DNA of 64,000 bases from Nitrospirota bacterium (GTDB lineage: Bacteria; Nitrospirota; UBA9217). The stretch covers positions 64,001 to 128,000 of the forward strand of contig CAWIYV010000011.1 in the NCBI GenBank assembly GCA_963840455.1. Direction: 5' to 3'. The notes under the pieces are model-generated. The model saw nothing but the letters and a program-made list of their open reading frames with translations. It searched no databases and was not told the DNA's origin. Shown here one piece after another: positions 433 to 41,773 of this stretch (position 1 is the first letter of the stretch; each line of letters begins with the position of its first letter). The position numbers and the translations under genes are program-made.

Positions 433-2335
433 ATGAAAACAAACCTTCCCATATGTATGCTCGCTGCGCTCAGTCCCCTGCTCCTTTTATTCACGTCAAA
501 TACGGCTTCAGCAACAATAACGCGCGTCGTTGTCACGACCAGCGCCCAATGTCCCGCCGACACGGTCACGACGCCGTGCTATACCAATCTGCAGACCGCC
601 ATGGATAATACTGAGGACGGCGATACCATTCTGGTCAAACCGGGCACCTACGTGGGGAATTTTTCCTTGAACAACAGGAGTGTCACGCTTGCCGGTCTCG
701 AAACTGCGAGCACATTTCTCTCCGGCGGCGGAGCGGGTACGGTCCTGACTATCAACGCTTCCACGACCTTAGCCACGACCGTCAGGAATCTAACCTTCAT
801 TAATGCCGCGGCGGGATTCGTAGTCCGGAACTCCACATCGGCGGTCAATATCGCGAACAACATCTTTGAGGTCGGGACCGGCAGCACGGCAGTCCAAACT
901 CAGGCATCTCAAGCGACAACGATCCAGAACAACATGTTCTATCTGAATGGGAATGGCATAATATCCGATACGAACACCCTCAGCATCATCAACAACGTCT
1001 TCATCCAGGACAGCAATGGCCTTGCGATCAGACCAACCACCATAAGCCTCGCATCCATCCAGAACAACCTTTTTAATGGCGGCACGATCGGCATTCCGAA
1101 CATCGTCTTGAACTCCACGGACCTGACCAACCCGGACAATAAACTGAATCTGGCGAATGTCGATCCCCTGTTCGTCAATCCCGACAATACGGACATCACC
1201 CAGAGGGATTTTCATTTGAAGAGCGGCAGTCCCTGTCAGGATGCGGGTAATGCGCTAGCCGGGGTAGACAGCGTTGATAGTACCAAACCGGACATCGGCG
1301 TCTATGGTGGTCAGTCTTCCGACACGATCCCAAAATCCATCACGGTCCTTTCCTCTGCCGCGACTGCATCTGCCCCCTTCGACATCACCCTCACCTGGTC
1401 GGCCAATCCGGCTTATACGGTCAAGGGCTACAAGGTCTACTACGGTTACCAGCCGGGTACGTACAACGGGAATGACGCCCTGTCAACGAGCGGAACAGGG
1501 ACCGTAAACTCGCCGATCGATGCAATGAACGTGACCATCTTCACGCTCAATGGTCTCAGCCCGTCGTCGGTCGTACCGGCCACTCCGACGCTGTTCACGC
1601 CCGGTGAACGCAATCAGAGCCTGTCCCTCTCGTGGTCTCCGGTCGCCAATGCCACAAGTTACACTGTCTATTCCGGCATTACGTCAACGTCGGAGATCGT
1701 CATACCGGGCATCACCACCCCGGGATACACCCTCACAGGGCTGACGAACGGCCAGTTGTATATGGTCCAGGTCTCCGCGAGTCTTCCAGGCAAAGTACTA
1801 CCTTGCCGTCACGGCCTACGATGTCAATGGTCAATCCGGCGGAGTCCCTGGTAGTTCCCATGAAAGCGCCTATTCATCCCCCGAAGAGGCCGTGCCGGTA
1901 GGCCCGGTGAGCGAAAGCGGCCTTTCGAACGTCATGACCGGCATACCACAGATGATCAATCCTTACCCCAACCTTCCGAACAACGGATGCTTCATCGCCA
2001 CGGCGGCGTACGGATCGCCGAACAATCGCGCCGTGATGGTGCTCCGGGAGTTCCGTGACCGCCATCTCGTAACGAATGCGCCGGGCAGGGCCTTCGTCAG
2101 GTGGTACTACGCGAATTCACCCGCTGCGGCACGGTTCATCAACGACCATCCTGCGCTGAGGCCAATCGCACGGATCGTCCTTGCCCCTGCTGTTGCCATT
2201 GCCCTGTTGCTTACCCGCACATCCCCGGCTGCACAGGCGGCAGTCCTGGTCATGCTGACCGCTCTCGCGTCCGTCCTATTCCGCAGGCATCGAACGCAGC
2301 GATCCCGCGCGCTTATAAAGGAAACCTCCGAATAG
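433..2335 (+). CDS. Secreted beta-helix + FN3 + CFI-box-CTERM surface protein, split by a +1 frameshift near 1780 (ORFs 433-1854 and 1892-2335)
   Basis: Signal peptide; parallel beta-helix repeats; [14 protein letters not shown] motif; FN3 strands; removing one base at 1780 restores [17 protein letters not shown]...HESAYS and reads through to [11 protein letters not shown]...LREFRD...WYY, a TM helix and a basic tail. Confidence 0.8.
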
Positions 2336-2337
2336 CC

Positions 2338-2988
2338 ATGCGAAACACCTTTTTCCTCACCATCCTTATCCTGGCGCTCCCCGCAGCTGCACTTGCCGCG
2401 TCACCATCCGTCGACCGGCCGCACTGGTCCCTTGAGGTTAAGGGCGGGTACTTCTATCCGGACATCGATAACTGGAAGAACTACTATGGTGACGACAAGA
2501 CCTGGCACTACGCGGGATCACTGGCCTACAAACTGGTCAGGCAGGTGGATGTCGGGGTCGAGGCGGGATACATCAAGGACCGTGGCCAGGGGAAAGGTGC
2601 TATCAGCGGTGTGATCGCCGGGAACGTGACCTACGAGCTTGCGCCGCTCAATGTGTTCGTCCTGTTCCGAGGAAAGTTCAGCGAGACACAATGGCTCGTC
2701 CCCTACGCAGGCGGCGGGTGGACGAGGATGTTCTATAAGGAGAAGATCGAGGCCCAGAGCACGGTGAGAGGTCATGCCGACGGATACCACGGCCGTGCGG
2801 GACTGCAGTTCCTCCTTGACGATGCCGACGGCACCGCCTCCCGGAACCTATACACCGATTACAGCATATACCATACGTACTTCTTCCTCGAAACCCAGTA
2901 CAGCCGCGTGATGATAAACGACCTCACCGGCACATCCGTCAACCTCGGAGGGACCAGCTACCTCGTGGGTCTTCTGTTCGAGTTCTAG
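2338..2988 (+). CDS. Outer-membrane beta-barrel protein (resembles MXAN_2562 family)
   Basis: ATG 2 nt after the upstream stop; signal peptide MRNTFFLTILILALPAAALA; alternating aromatic beta-strands; C-terminal FEF. Confidence 0.8.
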   Translation: MRNTFFLTILILALPAAALAASPSVDRPHWSLEVKGGYFYPDIDNWKNYYGDDKTWHYAGSLAYKLVRQVDVGVEAGYIKDRGQGKGAISGVIAGNVTYELAPLNVFVLFRGKFSETQWLVPYAGGGWTRMFYKEKIEAQSTVRGHADGYHGRAGLQFLLDDADGTASRNLYTDYSIYHTYFFLETQYSRVMINDLTGTSVNLGGTSYLVGLLFEF

Positions 2989-3309: not shown

Positions 3310-3978
3310 TTACCCGACCACCTGCCCGTCACGGATCTCGATGGTCCTTCCCGCCCGCTTCGCATTGTCCTTGTTGTGCGTCACCATCACGATGGTATGG
3401 CCTTCCCTGTGCAGGTCCTGCAGCATGTCGAGGACATGGTCGCCGGTCCTGGTATCGAGGTTGCCCGTGGGTTCGTCGGCGAGGATCACCGGGGGCTTGT
3501 TCACGATGGCCCGGGCGATGGCGACCCGCTCCTGCTCGCCGCCCGAGAGCTGGGACGGCAGACGGTGCGCCTTGGCGTCGAGCCCCACCTTCCGGAGCGC
3601 TTCCTGCGCTGCGTCCTTCGCCGTTCCGTTCATCCCCGGCTGCACCGTGAGCGGCAGCATGACATTCTCGACAGCAGTGAGGTACGGGATCAGGTAGAAG
3701 GATTGGAACACGAAGCCCAGGTACTCTCGCCGGAAGTCCGAGAGCTTGTTCGGACCCAGAGCGCCCAGGTCGATCCCATCCACTGAGACGACGCCTGAAG
3801 TCGGATGGCTCAGGCCCCCCACGAGGGACAGGAGCGTGCTCTTCCCGGAGCCCGACGGCCCCATGACGGCGACGAACTCGCCGCTCTCAATGCCGAGCGA
3901 TACGCCCCGAACAGCAGGATACTCTTCCTCGCCGGCATGGAATGCCTTGGTCACGTTCTGGAGATCTATGAATGCCAT
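3310..3978 (-). CDS. ABC transporter ATP-binding protein (LolD/MacB type)
   Basis: [28 protein letters not shown]. Confidence 0.95.
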
Positions 3979-4013
3979 GTCTTCTCCTACTTCTTAAATA
4001 CGTTAGTCCGTGC

Positions 4014-4133
4014 TTTCACCGCAGAGCACGCGGAGAACGCAGAGAACTTCAAATATTCCTTGCTTCAAACTAATACATCAAAGACTCTACCTTCCTGTTT
4101 TCCTCAGCGACCTCTGCGATCTCTGCGGTAAAA
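4014..4133. repeat. REP-like inverted repeat with 9-bp periodic arms
   Basis: Left arm tttcaccgcagagcacgcggagaacgcagag; right arm ctcagcgacctctgcgatctctgcggtaaaa; near-identical arm at 62751-62782. Confidence 0.75.
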
Positions 4134-4139
4134 AGTTGT

Positions 4140-5303
4140 TTACAATGTTCTTAAGGCCTCGATCGGGTCCAGCCGTCCGGCGCGCACCGCCGGATAGATG
4201 CTTGCCGCGAGCCCCACGATGACCGATGCGATGACCGCGCCCACGGCCATGGCCGGGTCAAAGACGAACTTCAGGTTATAGGCGCTCATGAGGTACGGCG
4301 CGATGAGACGCGGACTGAGCGTGCCGACCGCGTACCCCGATATCCCGGCAAGCAGGCTCACAAAGAACGCCTCGATCAGCAGCACCTGGATGATGTGGCC
4401 GGTCCGGAAGCCGATGGCCCGAAACAAGCCGATCTCCTGCACCCGCTCCTTCACCGACGCCGTCATGGCAAAGAAGATGATCATGCCCGCCACGATCAGC
4501 AGCAGCAGGGAGATGCCGAGCGAGAAGCGATGGAAGTAGTGCATTGCCTGCATCTTGAGCTCCACTGTCTCCTTCACCGCCACGGCCCGCGCCCCGGGGA
4601 GCACGCTGTTCACCTGCGCGACCATGTCCTCGATGGGGCACCCGCTGCAGAGGGCCGCAAGCTCGATGAGGCTGACCGCGTTCCCCTTCTTGAACTGCGC
4701 CTGGACCGTCTTCAGGTCGGCAAAGATCAGCGCATCGTCCTGGGACCCGGTGTTATCCAGCACGCCGGACACGCGGAACGTCCCTCCTCCGAGGATCACC
4801 GTGTCTCCGGGCGCAAGGCCCAGTTTCGCGGCAGCGTCCTTCCCGGCGAGCACCCCGGAAGGGCCGTCGGGCTTCATGCCCGCAGCAACGCGCCACCACT
4901 TCTTCAGTTTGAACTCCGCAGGCAGCTCCGCGCCCGCCACCATCACCTTGGTCCCCTTCACCTCGGTGACGACCAGGAGCTTCGGCGCCACGGTGCTGAT
5001 GTTCTCGTGGTTCTTGATGGTCTTGATCTTCCGGGCGTCCTCCAGGGTCAGCGACCGGCCGCCGGTGTTGATGGCCGAAACGGTCATCCCGCCGTAGGAC
5101 AGCGGCAGGTCCTCCGTGGCCGGGAGCACCAGGATGTTCGCGCCGAACTCGTCGAGCGTGTGCATCACCTCGCGGTTCATGGCGTCACCCACCGAAGTGA
5201 GTGCGACGGCGGCGGCGATCCCCAGGGCCAGGCCCGAGACCAGGAAGAAGGTCCGCCCCTTCTTCCGGCGCAGATTGTTGACGGCGATATCGATGAGTTT
5301 CAT
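4140..5303 (-). CDS. ABC transporter permease (MacB/FtsX family) with periplasmic CxxC
   Basis: Four-TM FtsX pattern, ERVQEIGLFRAIG, DPIEALR; ALCSGCP motif; start at MKLIDIA. Confidence 0.9.
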   Translation of the reverse strand: MKLIDIAVNNLRRKKGRTFFLVSGLALGIAAAVALTSVGDAMNREVMHTLDEFGANILVLPATEDLPLSYGGMTVSAINTGGRSLTLEDARKIKTIKNHENISTVAPKLLVVTEVKGTKVMVAGAELPAEFKLKKWWRVAAGMKPDGPSGVLAGKDAAAKLGLAPGDTVILGGGTFRVSGVLDNTGSQDDALIFADLKTVQAQFKKGNAVSLIELAALCSGCPIEDMVAQVNSVLPGARAVAVKETVELKMQAMHYFHRFSLGISLLLLIVAGMIIFFAMTASVKERVQEIGLFRAIGFRTGHIIQVLLIEAFFVSLLAGISGYAVGTLSPRLIAPYLMSAYNLKFVFDPAMAVGAVIASVIVGLAASIYPAVRAGRLDPIEALRTL

Positions 5304-5346
5304 GTTCTCTTCCTTGCTTGCCGGCTTGTCAGCTTGCAAGCTGTCG

Positions 5347-36599: not shown

Positions 36600-36989
36600 T
36601 CACAACAAGGCGGCTATCGTCAAGCCGACAACGGCGACCAGCAGGCCGAAGCCAATGACCGCTGCGGTCCTCCTTTGCAAAAGGGCACGTTCCCTGCCGC
36701 TGTCGAGGAAGGGGGCGAGCAAGACAACGCTGAAAGCGAGTCCCGGCAGGAGCACGGCACCCACAAAGGTCCACCGGCCGGGAAAGTACTTGGTGAGCTC
36801 GTAAAGGAACAGGAAGTACCATTCCGGGCGGGGGCTGAACTGCGTGGAAAAGTCGATCTCCCTGCCGATGGCTGGCGGGAACAGGATGGCCAGAAGCAGC
36901 ACCGCTTCGACCGCGAACAGCGCGACCACCGCCACTTCGAAGAAGTAATAGGGAAAGAACGTTTTCTCGTTTTTCGTTGCCTGCATCAC
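36600..36989 (-). CDS. Cytochrome b/b6 C-terminal (subunit IV-like) protein
   Basis: PEWYFLFLY motif, three TMs. Confidence 0.88.
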   Translation of the reverse strand: MMQATKNEKTFFPYYFFEVAVVALFAVEAVLLLAILFPPAIGREIDFSTQFSPRPEWYFLFLYELTKYFPGRWTFVGAVLLPGLAFSVVLLAPFLDSGRERALLQRRTAAVIGFGLLVAVVGLTIAALL

Positions 36990-37067
36990 GATGTTGTTCT
37001 CCTGTATCCCTAACCCCGTCTCTGTCTTCGCGTCACCCTGTCCCTGAATCTCCGTGTCCGCTGTATC

Positions 37068-37712
37068 TCACATCCCTCCCGATATCCCGGTCCTGCGGAT
37101 CATGTGGAAATGGAGCCAGAGGAAGATGCCCGTGGACAGTGGCAGCCAGAGGATGTGCATGCTGTAGAACCGGAGGAGCGTCGCGCCCGTCACCTCAGCA
37201 CCGCCGCGGACGAGGCCGGCGAGGAAGCTCCCTGCCAGGGGTACGGACCCGACCATGTTCGTGCCGATCACCGTGGCCCAGTAGGCCTTCTGGTCCCAGG
37301 GCAGGAGGTAGCCCGTGAACCCGAAGGACAGGGTCAGGACCAGGAGGAACGAACCCGCCACCCAGTGCAGCTCGCGCGGGTTCTTGTACGATCCGGTGAC
37401 GAAGACCCTGAGCATGTGGAGCACGATCGTGACGACCATCAGGTTCCCCGCCCAGTGGTGTGCTGCGCGGATGAGACCTCCCAGCGGCACCTCGCGGTGC
37501 AGCTGCTGGATGCTGCGGTAGGCGTCGGACTCCGAAGGGATGTAATAGCTGGAGAGCAGAAGGCCGGTCATGAGGAGCATGACAAAAAGCATGAAGGTGA
37601 TGCCGCCGAAGCAGTAATAATAGTTGATCCATCCCGGAACCGGTTTGTCCAGGATCCTCCGGTGCCTGCCGGTGAAGCCAAGGCGGTCGTTGAGATACTC
37701 GAGGACCTTCAT
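37068..37712 (-). CDS. Cytochrome b6-type N-terminal subunit
   Basis: YCFGG, HHWAGN..LHMLRVF, GFTGYLLPWDQ, RFYSMH..WLH. Confidence 0.95.
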   Translation of the reverse strand: MKVLEYLNDRLGFTGRHRRILDKPVPGWINYYYCFGGITFMLFVMLLMTGLLLSSYYIPSESDAYRSIQQLHREVPLGGLIRAAHHWAGNLMVVTIVLHMLRVFVTGSYKNPRELHWVAGSFLLVLTLSFGFTGYLLPWDQKAYWATVIGTNMVGSVPLAGSFLAGLVRGGAEVTGATLLRFYSMHILWLPLSTGIFLWLHFHMIRRTGISGGM

Positions 37713-37740
37713 TGCTTGTCACGCATCACTCGTCGCTGCT

Positions 37741-38193
37741 TCATACTTTCACCCCCACCGTCACCATCCCGTTCCTGACCTCGACGGGATACGCTGTGAG
37801 CGGTATTGGCGGAGGGCCTGCGATGTTCTTCCCGGCGATGTCGTACTTCCCGCCATGGCAGGGGCAGACGAACTCCCTGGACTCTTTTCGGTAGTTCACG
37901 AGGCACCCGAGGTGGCTGCAGACGGCCGACAGCACGGTGAGCCTGTCCGGTGATGAGATGATGAAGACGCGGGCCTTCCGCTCTTTCCCTGCAACGGCGT
38001 AGACTAGCTCGGCCTTCTTGACGCCGGACCGAGGGACCTCGTCCTCGGGGACCAGGGGGAACCAGGCAAGTTCCTTATTCCGCCAGCCCGAGGGCGAAAG
38101 GACCCGCAGGCCTGCGAACAGGGACCCGAGGCCGAGCAATGCGAACACTCCGTACAGGGCCTTTGCAATGAACTCTCTGCGTCCGTGCTCCAT
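37741..38193 (-). CDS. Rieske iron-sulfur subunit
   Basis: RREF Tat/TM; CSHLGC and CPCHGG. Confidence 0.95.
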   Translation of the reverse strand: MEHGRREFIAKALYGVFALLGLGSLFAGLRVLSPSGWRNKELAWFPLVPEDEVPRSGVKKAELVYAVAGKERKARVFIISSPDRLTVLSAVCSHLGCLVNYRKESREFVCPCHGGKYDIAGKNIAGPPPIPLTAYPVEVRNGMVTVGVKV

Positions 38194-38201
38194 TGTTGAC
38201 T

Positions 38202-38230
38202 ATAGTACGCCAGGGGACTGGGGATGTCAA
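38202..38230 (-). promoter_or_regulatory. sigma70 promoter of the Rieske/cytochrome b operon
   Basis: TTGACA-17 nt-TACTAT. Confidence 0.65.
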
Positions 38231-38289
38231 TCCGGGGGAGGAGCGGGGAAGGGACGTCCCGCATTACTGATAATGAAAGAACCGATTGG

Positions 38290-41166
38290 TCAGGGGAAAT
38301 GGTAAACGATGCCGAGATTCCAGGATGTGGCGGTCGCATCGGTATCCTTGTCCAGATGGAGGTCCCCTGAATCGAAGGTGATCTCCCGTCGCGCCACGCC
38401 GCCGGTCAGCGCGACCAGGGGATCGATGGCTACTTCAAGACCGAGGCCCAATTCGTTCCCTGATCCCTTATAATGTGTCCCGCCGCTGTCGCCGATCTCA
38501 TATTTACCGATTCCCAGGTACCCATAGGGTGTGTACCGGCTGTTTGGGATCGGGAGATTCAGCCTGATCGCGAGGATCTGACCGGAAAACATCTGGCGCT
38601 GGAGGTTGGCCATGCCGAGAAAATCGGTGTCATGATAGGTGCGGAACAGGGAACCTTCGATCGCCAGATATTCGTTCAGTCCCCATCCGAGCTGCAGCGT
38701 GATCCCCTGCCCGGGATCGAGGCTGTCGAAATAGGCCTTGTCGACGGTATCGCTGCTTTTCCCTTTGATCGTCGTATTGGTATAGAGGATCCCGGTATAG
38801 AACCCCTCCTTCGCCGACGCGCTTTGAGCAAGGAACGGGCATGATAAGATGATCAGGAGGAAAAAGGATCCGATGGCTGTGATCTTCTTTGAGACGCCTC
38901 TCGACAGCGCGGAGGACCTCCGGCGCAGTGCCTTCATCTTGAGAACGAAGGCCACAGAACAAAGCAGGAGAATCAGGAAAAGGATCTGACCAGGATGTTC
39001 TGCGAAAAAGATGACGGGCCGCAGCATCCAGCGGGCGGCTTCGCGCATCTTTTCATGCCGCTCGATGAATTCGGCGAGGAGCGGTGAAGCGTGGTAATAG
39101 AGCCTGACGAATTTCCTGCCCGCGAAGTTAGTCATCAGATATTTATCTCGAAAGTCCCTCAAGCTCTGTATCCGCGGAGCCAGGTCGCTCCCGGCAACGA
39201 TTCTGGTAATGGAGCATGCGAAGTACGAGCCGCCTCCTCCCCCGCCGCCTCCCGAATAGTCATAGGTGCTTCTGAAGTTGGCAAAACAGATCTTGCTACT
39301 GTCCATGGTCACGGTCGTCGATGTAACCAAACCGCCGTTACAGTTCCCGCCCCAGCCGTCGAATACCGATCCGGATGCCGGCGTTGCCGCAAGGATCACG
39401 ACCATGTCCAAGGGATAGCGCGCCTGGCAGCTTGTGCCGCAATAGATGCTGCCGTCGGTGGTCGAGCTTACTGTTCCTCCGCCGCTTCCCGTCTTCATGA
39501 CGGCAAGAGTGAGCGGCCCGCCGATCTCGCCGACGGCACCGCTGTAGTTGGAGTGGGAAACATAGGCGCGCATGCCGTCAGGGCTCATTGCAATGCCCAT
39601 GGGCCGGGTGCCGGCATTGGTCGTAAAAGACCCCGCGAGCGTGTCCGTCTGCGTGTTGATATATCCGACCGTATCACTGCCCGGCATGTAGCTGGCGGTA
39701 CTATTCGCCACGAACACTCGAGTCCCGTCCGGGCTCACGGCGAGCCCCTGGGGCTCTGCGAAGCCGGTGATGATTGCCGATGAGGCGAGCGTTGCCCCGG
39801 CCGCGTTGTAAACAATGACGCTGTTGCTCTGGCTGCAGCTCACGTAGACCTTCTTGCCGTCAGGCGTCACGGCGATCCCCACGGGGTGTGATCCCGTGGG
39901 CACCGAGTCCACGACCGACAGGGTCGCCAGATCGAAGACCTTGACCTCGTCGGTCCCGGAGAATGCCAGGTACGCATGCTCGCCGTCGGGATTCACCGCG
40001 ATGCCCAAGGGGACCGCGCTCGGATCGGAAACAGACGCGACCGCCGTTTTGTTGGAAAGGTCCATGACCGTCACCGCTCCGCCCAGAGAGTTGTTGGAGA
40101 AGAGCAGGGTCCGGCCGTCGGGAGTGATGGCAATGCCCTGCGGATTGCTGTCCGCGCCTCCCCCCGCGTTGCCGAAGATGGTCTCTATGGTCTCCAGGTT
40201 CGCGGCGTCGAGCACCGTGATCCCGCTGTAGCCCGTCGCCACATAAAGACGTCTGCCCGCGGGATGCACCACCAGGCTTTCCGCATTGTTCATCAGGTAT
40301 TTCGGGGAGAACAGCAGCGTGTTCGTGGCCGTGTTGATCATGTACAGGTAGTAGTTGCAGGCCACGTAGGCCTTCCGGCCGTCAGGATTGAACGCGACAC
40401 CGACGGGCCTGCAATAGTCCAGCGAGATCGATCTGCTCTGCGCCGGCAGAGGAGAAGAGACGACGAGCCCAAACGGAATGGGACTGAATGCCTCGCCAAG
40501 GGGGGTCTGCAGGGAGAGCGGTCCGTTACCAAACCCTGATGGCGCCGTTGCCACGAGCTTCGTCGTCAGCGCCGTCAGGAATCCTGCCGGCGGCGTGGTG
40601 TTGAACCGGAGCTGGTTGTCCGAAGGCGCGGGGCCGAAGCCGGTCCCGCTGACCGTCACGATCGTTCCCGGCAGCCCCGCAGGGGGGCTCACAAAGGAGA
40701 TGCGGGGCCCGCCCGGCTTTGCGATCTGCATGCCCGTGAAGATCCCCTGCGCGCCCGTTCCCGGCTGGGTCCATGCGCCGGTGGCAGACCGTTCGGCCAG
40801 GCTGATCCCGGTCAGAATCCATTCGTTCTGGAAGCACGGTGGACGCGAGACGGTCCCCGAAACGACATTGTTCGGCCCCACAGCCCCTTCAAGCGTGCCG
40901 TTCGCACAATCGACATCGCCGTCGAGCCGGTATGAAGCCCTCACCCGGTACCCCGGCTGGGTCATGTCGGCCTCCCAGGTCCCGCTGACCGGGCCGATGA
41001 CCGGATCGTTCCCCGTCCAGGACCCGGCCCATACGCCCGAAAGGTCGATGGACGGCTTGGGAGAGATGGGGTCGCCTTTTTCACTGCAGGAGATGAGAAG
41101 AAGGAAAGGCAGGAAGATCAAAGCGGAGAGCTGCCGGACGAGCCGGTGAGAACAGTAATGCACCAT
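38290..41166 (-). CDS. Lipoprotein with IPT/TIG, YVTN beta-propeller, bacterial repeat and CFI-box-like CTERM, fused to an outer-membrane beta-barrel
   Basis: Lipobox LLISC; GTIVTVSGTGF; P.GIAVTPDG repeats; Gly linker; ACSI..LRDFRD..LYYHASP; TM; second signal ..AQSASA-K; barrel ending IVYHFP. Confidence 0.82.
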   Translation of the reverse strand: MVHYCSHRLVRQLSALIFLPFLLLISCSEKGDPISPKPSIDLSGVWAGSWTGNDPVIGPVSGTWEADMTQPGYRVRASYRLDGDVDCANGTLEGAVGPNNVVSGTVSRPPCFQNEWILTGISLAERSATGAWTQPGTGAQGIFTGMQIAKPGGPRISFVSPPAGLPGTIVTVSGTGFGPAPSDNQLRFNTTPPAGFLTALTTKLVATAPSGFGNGPLSLQTPLGEAFSPIPFGLVVSSPLPAQSRSISLDYCRPVGVAFNPDGRKAYVACNYYLYMINTATNTLLFSPKYLMNNAESLVVHPAGRRLYVATGYSGITVLDAANLETIETIFGNAGGGADSNPQGIAITPDGRTLLFSNNSLGGAVTVMDLSNKTAVASVSDPSAVPLGIAVNPDGEHAYLAFSGTDEVKVFDLATLSVVDSVPTGSHPVGIAVTPDGKKVYVSCSQSNSVIVYNAAGATLASSAIITGFAEPQGLAVSPDGTRVFVANSTASYMPGSDTVGYINTQTDTLAGSFTTNAGTRPMGIAMSPDGMRAYVSHSNYSGAVGEIGGPLTLAVMKTGSGGGTVSSTTDGSIYCGTSCQARYPLDMVVILAATPASGSVFDGWGGNCNGGLVTSTTVTMDSSKICFANFRSTYDYSGGGGGGGGSYFACSITRIVAGSDLAPRIQSLRDFRDKYLMTNFAGRKFVRLYYHASPLLAEFIERHEKMREAARWMLRPVIFFAEHPGQILFLILLLCSVAFVLKMKALRRRSSALSRGVSKKITAIGSFFLLIILSCPFLAQSASAKEGFYTGILYTNTTIKGKSSDTVDKAYFDSLDPGQGITLQLGWGLNEYLAIEGSLFRTYHDTDFLGMANLQRQMFSGQILAIRLNLPIPNSRYTPYGYLGIGKYEIGDSGGTHYKGSGNELGLGLEVAIDPLVALTGGVARREITFDSGDLHLDKDTDATATSWNLGIVYHFP

Positions 41167-41458
41167 GGAAGCACCTCCCCCCGAAAAGGCGGTACTTAGT
41201 GCGTTGACCATCAGACAGGATTTAAGTTTAGCATAAAACACGGCCTATTCAAGTGATAAAGGAGGATGGTTGCCAATGGAGAATGATAGCCGAGGTTAAA
41301 TGACCCTAAATGTTTGTAAAGCAACGGAGGTATCATCGTCCCCACTCGTCACGAGCCATATCTCTGAATCTTATACCCATAAGGTACTATCAATGATCCC
41401 TCTCGGGACTGTTTGAACCTTTGGTGTGACCAGTTCATCCTCGGCTATCCTGCCACCG

Positions 41459-41773
41459 TTACTTCACGAAGGAGCAGCAGTAATCGGAAAACGTCTTGAC
41501 CTTCATCGTGAACTTGGAATTGGCCGGCACCTCGAAGGACTCGCCGCCCTTGACTGGCTTCCAGTCCTTCGACCCGGGGAGTTGCACATCCAGTTCCCCC
41601 GACAGGATCTCCATGATCTCTTTGTCGCCGGTCGAGAACTCGTACTCGCCCGGCTGCATGATGCCGAGGGTCTTTTTGGACCCGTCGGGGAAGAGGACCG
41701 TCCTGCTCACGACCTTGCCGTCGAAATAGACGTTGGCCTTCTTCACGACCGTGACATTTCTGAACTCTGACAT
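41459..41773 (-). CDS. ppnP: Pyrimidine/purine nucleoside phosphorylase
   Basis: [33 protein letters not shown]. Confidence 0.92.

Follow-up and report, generated by a model that had tools for sequence, protein, structure and literature searches.

A CFI-box lipoprotein and an eight-stranded outer-membrane barrel encoded in one reading frame across a candidate internal signal peptide

In Bradyrhizobium japonicum, cytochrome b and cytochrome c1 are made as one precursor, FbcH, and are separated at an internal signal sequence. Viral polyproteins and a small number of respiratory ones are known to be handled in this way, but no such case among barrel proteins is known to us. A candidate for such a case is described here. 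It is a gene of a Nitrospirota bacterium, located at 38290–41166 on the minus strand of the 64,000-nucleotide (nt) stretch of DNA that was analyzed (the window). Its single open reading frame (ORF) encodes a lipoprotein-type cargo with a CFI-box-CTERM domain and, behind a transmembrane helix, a basic loop and a signal-peptide-like segment, a predicted eight-stranded outer-membrane barrel. Like FbcH, the protein would be a bacterial membrane polyprotein in which an internal signal peptide, preceded by transmembrane helices, serves to divide two mature proteins. However, the products of FbcH belong to an inner-membrane respiratory complex, whereas those predicted for the window gene are an outer-membrane barrel and a C-terminally anchored lipoprotein.

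Cargo and barrel are also paired in Myxococcus, where the MYXO-CTERM protein TraA goes together with TraB. Autotransporters (type V) carry passenger and C-terminal barrel on one polypeptide, as the window protein does, but their barrels are built of 12 strands, enclose the linker and come with no internal transmembrane helix or signal. The window barrel, on the other hand, is predicted to have eight strands, and between it and the passenger lie a transmembrane helix and a signal, at a junction that would sever the two parts. TraA/TraB and the pairs of type B CTD (C-terminal domain) cargo and PorP-like barrel known from type IX secretion resemble the window protein in that a C-terminally tagged cargo has as its counterpart a small outer-membrane barrel, which serves as its anchor or cooperates with it; their tags, barrels and phyla are unrelated to those of the window. 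We know of no such pair of either kind that is encoded as a single ORF via a transmembrane helix and a signal peptide. For the type IX pairs see PMC9143113, and for the processing of viral glycoprotein precursors by host signal peptidase, a further analogy, PMC7926653.

The fusion is a genuine, evolutionarily maintained gene that makes one precursor. Most likely, two mature proteins arise from it. The gene comprises the following parts:

38290..41166, minus strand: whole fused ORF, 958 amino acids (aa) plus stop, open throughout (translation)
41086..41166, minus strand: lipoprotein-type signal, residues 1–27, with the lipobox L-I-S-C ending at residue 27 (pattern match only)
40507..40707, minus strand: IPT/TIG domain, residues 154–220 (PF01833, E 1.1e-5, 25.7 bits against a cut-off of 20.9)
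39547..40419, minus strand: YVTN/lactonase-type β-propeller, approximately residues 250–540 (TIGR02276, 78.8 bits against a cut-off of 27.85)
39271..39480, minus strand: divergent InlB B-repeat (Flg_new_2), residues 563–632 (PF18998, E 3.4e-7)
39229..39252, minus strand: run of eight Gly, residues 639–646, the linker preceding the CFI box (translation)
39010..39216, minus strand: CFI-box-CTERM domain, residues 651–719 (NF041770, 80.7 bits against a cut-off of 40)
38935..38994, minus strand: hydrophobic helix 1, the putative membrane anchor of the CFI-box domain, residues 725–744 (hydropathy scan; helix 86–113 of the C-terminal piece in the AlphaFold2 model)
38884..38934, minus strand: basic loop, residues 745–761, 17 aa with seven Lys/Arg and no Asp/Glu (hydropathy scan)
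38812..38883, minus strand: internal signal-peptide-like segment, residues 762–785 (h-region 762–781, then A-S-A at -3 to -1)
38293..38811, minus strand: predicted mature eight-stranded outer-membrane barrel, residues 786–958 (K786 to P958), 173 aa (PF13505)

A strong motif, GGGAGGTG, lies 6 nt upstream of the start codon ATG at 41166. The N-terminus of the cargo fits the lipobox pattern [LVI][ASTVI][GAS]C behind a basic n-region and an h-region (pattern only), and the propeller is matched by PF10282 as well (profile search, E 3.5e-11). The cysteine of the CFI box is residue 651 (39214–39216), helix 1 ends with Met744 (ATG, 38935–38937), and the internal segment ends in S-A-S-A and is followed by K-E-G. 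The match to PF13505 (OMP_b-brl) spans residues 769–957 with 58.6 bits against a gathering cut-off of 28.7. A first-pass annotation of the window had listed these parts of the ORF, and all of them, including the cysteine, Met744 and the 173-aa barrel, were found in place.

The last 319 residues were used as a query against 1.84 billion representative proteins. Three representatives cover both halves in one stretch: P0002 (a 364-aa fragment, 62% identity), P0003 (952 aa, 56%) and P0004 (904 aa, 44%). Their overall architecture is that of the window protein. A metagenome scan with a four-row alignment (A3) found the fusion as an open DNA frame on two contigs, L142 and L143, in a gene neighborhood unlike that of the window. 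L142 is a 17-kb contig; its ORF equals P0003 save for one residue, keeps the N-terminal lipobox and shares 69% identity with the window protein along the full 958 aa. L143 contains only part of the gene, and its loop has diverged strongly. The single fused ORF of the first-pass annotation thus recurs in four other distinct orthologous sequences (P0002, P0003/L142, L143 and P0004; 44–69% identical), two of them available as DNA. The barrel is under purifying selection while fused, since its ratio of nonsynonymous to synonymous changes (dN/dS) between L142 and L143 is 0.08/0.37 (0.22). The corresponding values are 0.57/1.03 for loop and signal and 0.105/0.264 for the CFI domain. The fusion is absent from all 63 other species representatives of the window's taxonomic family, and it belongs to a small clade otherwise known from metagenomes only.

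An artefact of sequencing or assembly, in which a false indel joined two genes, is a very unlikely explanation with a chance close to nil, because independent sequences carry the fusion and contigs of a relative keep the frame. The window does come from an assembly of 14 contigs in which the neighboring CFI-box cargo at 433–2335 carries a frameshift, and a search of public sequencing runs found none with more than 27% of the sampled words and listed no RNA run; nevertheless, P0002, P0003/L142, L143 and P0004 show the same fusion in independent assemblies or clusters. Short contigs of a ~90% identical relative, obtained from two runs, cover 38599–38924 (none bridges 38929–39224) and stay in frame through the loop by manual reading. 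Their sequence lacks 1 nt and, a few bases away, gains 1 nt, with the net frame preserved. Their loose end, translated manually, continues in frame into hydrophobic and Arg-rich residues.

The same 319 residues were modeled with AlphaFold2 from 24 aligned sequences, with a mean predicted local distance difference test score (pLDDT) of 83. In the model, the CFI-box domain is a helical bundle (pLDDT ~90) that runs into hydrophobic helix 1, and the fused barrel consists of eight long antiparallel strands (pLDDT mostly >90). The packing of the domains is not confidently predicted, because the predicted template modeling score (pTM) is only 0.56. A fold search with VIA-align, for which the barrel part of the model was used, matched NspA (Z 18.9, root-mean-square deviation 2.1, 148 aligned residues), the transmembrane domain of OmpA (Z 18.4), OmpW (Z 17.6) and PagL (Z 14.7), with OmpX also among the top fold matches; Foldseek returned OmpA, OmpW, OprG and Ail at E ~1e-8. 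The barrel ends in Y-H-F-P with Phe in the penultimate position, and its relatives end in F, F-Y or F-L. In its hidden Markov model match, the number of strands, the A-x-A signal and the aromatic residue at or next to the C-terminus, the fused barrel resembles the small eight-stranded barrels (PF13505; OmpA, OmpX/Ail, NspA, OmpW). However, its signal is internal and lies behind the transmembrane helix of another protein, whereas the signal of the free relatives (186–220 aa) is N-terminal.

For the junction, four fused proteins were aligned with four free-standing relatives of the barrel (P0005, P0006, P0008 and the gene L034 of genome G006; 191–220 aa). L034 is adjoined by unrelated genes of housekeeping type. 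Ala at -3 (A783) and at -1 (A785) is invariant in all eight sequences. In the free barrels, this A-x-A site closes an ordinary N-terminal signal, and the mature ends (K/T/N-E-G) of fused and free barrels are alike. The window protein has the sequence hallmarks of a signal peptidase I substrate, with seven Lys/Arg in the loop, a hydrophobic stretch of 18–20 aa (762–781) and Ala at -3 and -1. Among the fused copies the loop measures 17–28 aa and is variable in sequence, but it is always basic and a hydrophobic stretch comes next; the flanks are conserved. Because the loop varies and yet stays basic ahead of the hydrophobic stretch, the internal segment is argued to work as a signal still. The loop looks like the basic tail of the CFI-box anchor merged with the n-region of the former barrel signal; the tails of unfused CFI-box proteins are rich in Lys and Arg. 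The sequence features of a stop-transfer helix, a basic loop and a cleavable signal, as the topology had been read before, are thus present in this order.

The proposed route, to which a probability of about 0.62 is assigned, is a precursor threaded through Sec. The N-terminal lipoprotein signal would carry the cargo of ~700 aa (TIG domain, propeller and repeat) across the inner membrane, until the hydrophobic helix of the CFI-box-CTERM domain halts the transfer. The 17-aa, strongly basic loop would remain cytoplasmic, and the second hydrophobic segment, formerly the signal of the barrel, would re-initiate export as an internal signal peptide. Signal peptidase I would then cleave after A-S-A (residue 785) and release the 173-aa, eight-stranded barrel, which would be inserted into the outer membrane by the ordinary route. 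The cargo would stay tethered by the CFI-box helix and probably also by its N-terminal lipid. As the layout of the genes suggests, a one-base frame change where a cargo and a barrel gene overlap or abut can create such a junction.

Several points weigh against this route. Cleavage at A785 and release of cargo and barrel at 1:1 are what we infer from the features above. The helix-breaking Pro of the window's internal segment is at -9, while its usual position is -4 to -6. The AlphaFold2 model has a pLDDT of ~53 over loop and signal, besides the low pTM. Furthermore, the internal h-region contains a lipobox-like Cys in four of the five fused sequences, compared with none of the four free ones; in the window it is residue 776 (I-L-S-C, 38836–38847). 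Finally, the window has an in-frame ATG (residue 744) and the motif GGAGG 9 nt before an in-frame CTG (38905–38907, residue 754), which would allow separate translation of the barrel, and two fusions of another barrel type, L082 (TTG-AAA-AAG) and that of genome G025 (ATG), keep the ancestral barrel start in frame. The last two points each belong to a rival explanation.

Taken as a lipobox, the Cys would make the internal segment a lipoprotein signal. The barrel would then be processed by Lgt and, at Cys776, by signal peptidase II, and it would be lipidated with an additional N-terminal tail of 10 residues. The motifs I-L-S-C (window), I-A-S-C (P0002, P0003) and A-A-A-C (P0004) all fit the lipobox pattern, and two other CFI-box proteins, P0105 and P0140, are clearly fused via lipoprotein signals. 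The explanation is nonetheless improbable: in L143, which is closely related to L142, Val replaces the Cys, whereas 8/8 sequences keep the A-x-A site unchanged, and the N-terminus K/T/N-E-G that follows this site aligns with the mature N-terminus of the free barrels. Helix 1, too, contains a Cys in all five fused sequences.

Alternatively, the barrel might mainly be translated separately from an internal start, either ATG 38937 or CTG 38907, in the manner of overlapping genes of an operon, with the full-length protein as a minor product. The product from either codon would have a normal n-region, h-region and A-x-A site, and the former starts that remain in frame in L082 and G025 fit this explanation as well. 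It is considered unlikely. ATG 38937 is preceded by no Shine-Dalgarno motif, in agreement with the first-pass annotation, which had noted the missing ribosome-binding site and overlooked the GGAGG before the CTG. CTG is a rare start codon, and the GGAGG is simply the Arg-Arg codon pair CGG-AGG of the basic loop. Residue 744 is Met in the window, Val in P0002 and Ile in P0003/L142, and it is absent from P0004 and L143. None of the seven fused genes with DNA, L142, L143 and L067 among them, has in its junction a Shine-Dalgarno-like motif with an in-frame ATG, GTG or TTG at 4–12 nt. Additionally, the frame is kept open down to 44% identity, including the net-zero indels in the contigs of the relative. 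By this comparison, an internal barrel start is not a conserved feature.

The protein might also stay uncut, with both hydrophobic segments forming a hairpin in the inner membrane and the barrel being a decaying or periplasmic appendage, that is, a tolerated read-through without function. This is quite improbable, given a barrel dN/dS of 0.22 between two fused copies, eight well-formed strands in the AlphaFold2 model and an invariant A-x-A site. Since the first strand follows the signal with no linker in between, the outer membrane would also be out of reach for a barrel that stays uncut. What speaks for such a read-through is the fusion in G025, which looks like a recent reading through of a spacer beside an unfused congener, together with the degenerate CFI motif of the window and the membership of the fused barrel in a generic outer-membrane protein family.

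The CFI-box signature is C-F-I-A-T-A-A-[YF]-G-S, of which the Cys, three Ala, the Gly and the Ser are invariant in 13 aligned members (alignment A1). The motif of the window (39187–39216) is degenerate; it keeps C, I, G and S and has S, T, R, I, V and A elsewhere. The fused orthologues P0002–P0004 and L142 retain the canonical motif, and the constraint on the window copy may be relaxed. A local double frameshift was considered as the cause and rejected, as the motif, by manual reading, is not encoded in the other two frames. Like other CFI-box-CTERM proteins (NF041770), the window domain scores above the cut-off, comes after a Gly-rich linker and leads into a helical region, a hydrophobic helix and basic residues. 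However, it is not C-terminal. The helix and the basic residues run into signal and barrel, so that 239 residues follow the domain, whereas for 77 of 81 domains examined elsewhere the protein stops 2–40 aa past the domain. No match was found in a sequence search of the PDB with the CFI-box profile (best E 0.22).

The window holds a second CFI-box cargo with a barrel, here as two genes:

433..2335, plus strand: cargo of the split pair, with a NosD-like β-helix, fn3 and a canonical CFI-box-CTERM domain (profile searches); frameshift at about 1779–1781
2338..2988, plus strand: barrel of the split pair, MXAN_2562 family (NF040596, 124.3 bits against a cut-off of 100), starting 2 nt past the cargo stop

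The split pair at 433–2988 that had been noted in the first pass is thus real, with the CFI-box ORF ending at 2335 and the NF040596 barrel starting at 2338. AlphaFold2 gives this barrel eight strands (pLDDT 87). The alignment with an orthologue of the cargo runs in frame 1 as far as 1779 and continues in frame 2 from 1781, and relatives have one intact ORF of ~600–650 aa; the broken cargo may be a pseudogene or an assembly error. Pairs of CFI-box cargo and NF040596 barrel share with the fusion the order cargo–barrel and the eight strands, and where they are fused (L065, L067, L082 and L145), they show the same junction of transmembrane helix, loop and signal. They differ in that the fused barrel of the window is not a member of NF040596 and its cargo is a lipoprotein propeller instead of a NosD-like β-helix with fn3. 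Convergent with the split pair, an ABC ATPase and a permease of MacB/FtsX type are encoded at 3310–5339 on the minus strand (window genes by eye). This arrangement is found in Nitrospirota metagenome-assembled genomes (MAGs) and one betaproteobacterial MAG (L063, L068 and L100) and the six remaining pair loci that were examined lack it. The ATPase and permease of L063 and L068 are followed by an FtrD-like membrane iron-sulfur protein.

Fusions were also found outside the clade of the window gene. A scan for CFI boxes in one genome per species gave >605 matches. Only the 80 that resemble the split-pair domain most closely were retained, and the sampled loci are therefore biased towards the split-pair subfamily. 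The resulting set holds 81 CFI-box domains in 79 loci from many phyla. More than 200 residues follow the CFI box in four of them (L065, L067, L082 and L107). In L065 and L067 from Geomonas (L067 from the isolate G. silvestris Red330) and in L082 from a complete deltaproteobacterial MAG chromosome, a cargo of NosD/fn3 type is fused to a barrel of MXAN_2562 type, which is the fused form of the window's split pair; in L107, a CFI-box cargo is fused to a different C-terminal part. A further MAG of the window's family (L145, G025:C41) has a frame of 737 aa in which a former spacer of 21 residues is read through into the ATG of the barrel. In the congener G009, a stop lies 17 codons ahead of the barrel domain; the fusion of G025 is, as far as these sequences tell, either recent or an error of the MAG. 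The search for other CFI-box–barrel fusions that had been suggested in the first pass was therefore successful, with the orthologues as well as L065, L067, L082 and G025.

In the barrel tree, the MXAN_2562 fusions stand at three places: the Geomonas pair (support 100/99), G025 next to its unfused congener (99/99), and L082, whose position is unsure because of its long branch. Besides barrels of known families, the C-terminal parts of P0116 and P0120 resemble barrels of OpcA/autotransporter type and MetA type (atlas scores of 0.96–0.97; these are leads only). A Pfam search of these two C-terminal parts and of that of L107 gave no family. P0014 (1142 aa) consists of two complete CFI-box cargo units head to tail, joined by helix, basic loop and a signal-like segment, and in P0105 and P0140 a CFI-box protein is joined to a lipoprotein via a lipobox. 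All 14 tabulated fusions have a hydrophobic helix, a basic loop (2–28 aa) and a second hydrophobic segment, followed by a site of A-x-A type or a lipobox. On this comparison, the junction of transmembrane helix, basic loop and signal has arisen independently more than once, including in the Geomonas isolate.

The first-pass annotation had taken fusion and split pair together as evidence for a cargo/barrel sorting system. In part, the linkage of the genes agrees with this. The window's own genome has only two CFI-box domains, both in the window and each with a barrel. In 61 genomes (this one and 60 relatives), 32 of the 36 NF040596 matches lie 192–914 nt, mostly 200–230 nt, downstream of a CFI-box match on the same strand; the four exceptions comprise two matches truncated at contig ends, a partial match and a true orphan. 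An NF040596 barrel is the next gene for 13 of the 81 domains in the 79 loci (Nitrospirota, Beta- and Gammaproteobacteria), in 10 cases with a start/stop overlap of 4 nt. A one-base frame change at such an overlap would yield the fusions seen. A barrel of PF13505/OmpA type stands at the same 4-nt overlap behind a CFI-box gene in L134 (Chromatiaceae).

Other findings weigh against a partnership, or against its generality. The CFI motif of the window has lost three otherwise invariant Ala, and the fused barrel is not matched by NF040596 (MXAN_2562 family, cut-off 100 bits) at E up to 0.01. Its closest relatives are free-standing, often in tandem, and unlinked to CFI-box genes; one is encoded elsewhere in the same genome, and the genome G024 has two such barrels and no CFI match at 86% completeness. 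Orthologues of the cargo in Gallionella and gammaproteobacterial MAGs (L141 and L111; 42% and 40% identity over ~700 residues) end normally, with no barrel within ~3.4 kb. In the 61 genomes, 57 of the 89 CFI-box matches (counted after one second half-match had been dropped) have no NF040596 barrel behind them and 32 have one. None of 24 high-scoring loci of the family outside the split-pair type has a barrel, and a Pfam scan of 17 downstream ORFs from these non-MXAN loci found no barrel family at E up to 1e-5. CFI-box proteins are frequent in records of Dehalococcoidia/Chloroflexota and occur also in those of Syntrophomonadaceae, Saccharibacteria, Omnitrophota and Vermiphilus (loci L073–L137). 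Dehalococcoidia, Syntrophomonadaceae and Saccharibacteria lack a classical outer membrane, and the presence of the domain in their records shows that it is not tied to outer-membrane bacteria. Furthermore, exported proteins other than barrels are fused in the same way (P0014, P0105, P0140), so that a fusion indicates adjacency and topological tolerance rather than dependence. Finally, both barrels are modeled with eight strands and no lumen for a polypeptide, for which reason neither should be able to act as a translocator or conduit.

Should the barrel prove to be a partner in any sense, its role would be that of an anchor or adaptor. The odds of some partnership between cargo and barrel are about even. 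It is favored for the MXAN_2562 subfamily because of the nearly exclusive linkage to CFI boxes and the repeated fusions, and the evidence is thinner for the barrel type of the window fusion. More specifically, CFI-box proteins and eight-stranded barrels of diderms could be a two-partner system for holding large extracytoplasmic proteins at the outer membrane, in which the barrel is the dedicated anchor or receptor of the helical CFI-box domain and the fusions deliver equal numbers of both in a single translocation event; this is a tentative proposal that is rather doubtful at present. Of the sorting system first suggested, the linkage of the split-pair type (32/36) and the recurrence of fusions thus stand; the eight strands, the unlinked majority of CFI boxes (57/89), the free-standing relatives of the barrel and the fusions to other proteins speak against it.

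Full-text literature searches found no paper on the CFI-box domain. A full-text search for MXAN_2562 returned nothing that looked relevant, and a search for internal signal peptides in polyproteins together with the outer membrane listed no bacterial case among its results. The system had been called undescribed before; the CFI-box domain and the MXAN_2562 barrel are already NCBIfam models. Since both domains are curated in NCBIfam or Pfam, it is only their association that looks new. Neither this association nor a fusion in which an internal signal peptide leads into an outer-membrane barrel appears to have been described in the literature searched, although the comments on both models in NCBIfam might mention the linkage.

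Should the proposed route be correct, the window gene would offer a clear example, occurring naturally in bacteria, of a polyprotein whose last part is an outer-membrane protein that is set free at an internal signal peptide. It would also provide a functional lead for the CFI-box-CTERM domain, of which the genome scan found >600 copies. The junction would be tolerated when an abutting or overlapping stop is lost. Its rule, a C-terminal anchor helix followed by a basic loop and the signal of the next gene, could help gene callers and annotators to identify a fused exported protein as such where they would otherwise report an error. The linkage in 32 of 36 cases and the fusions in several lineages make the partnership of cargo and barrel directly testable.

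A scan of 37600–41600 for promoters and terminators found sites no more numerous than in shuffled sequences and none within the junction. On the same strand, 96 nt downstream of the fused gene, an ORF resembling a Rieske iron-sulfur protein and a split cytochrome b-like ORF are encoded at 36600–38193, minus strand (by eye), and the gap that separates them from the fused gene contains a sigma-70-like site (38230–38202). This context is not conserved, since L142 has other neighbors.

Two observations concern the neighbors of other CFI-box genes. Type II secretion genes, encoding a GspC-like protein and a GspG pseudopilin, directly follow CFI-box genes at two unrelated loci (L099:3871–4632 and L108:3188–3634). 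Behind each of the family's two largest CFI-box proteins (open frames of 1944 and 2005 aa) comes a short ORF that looks like a lipoprotein and contains a DsbC_N match (E 8e-14 and 2e-10; L003:1840–2208 and L006:1805–2116), a curious neighbor in view of the invariant Cys of the CFI box.

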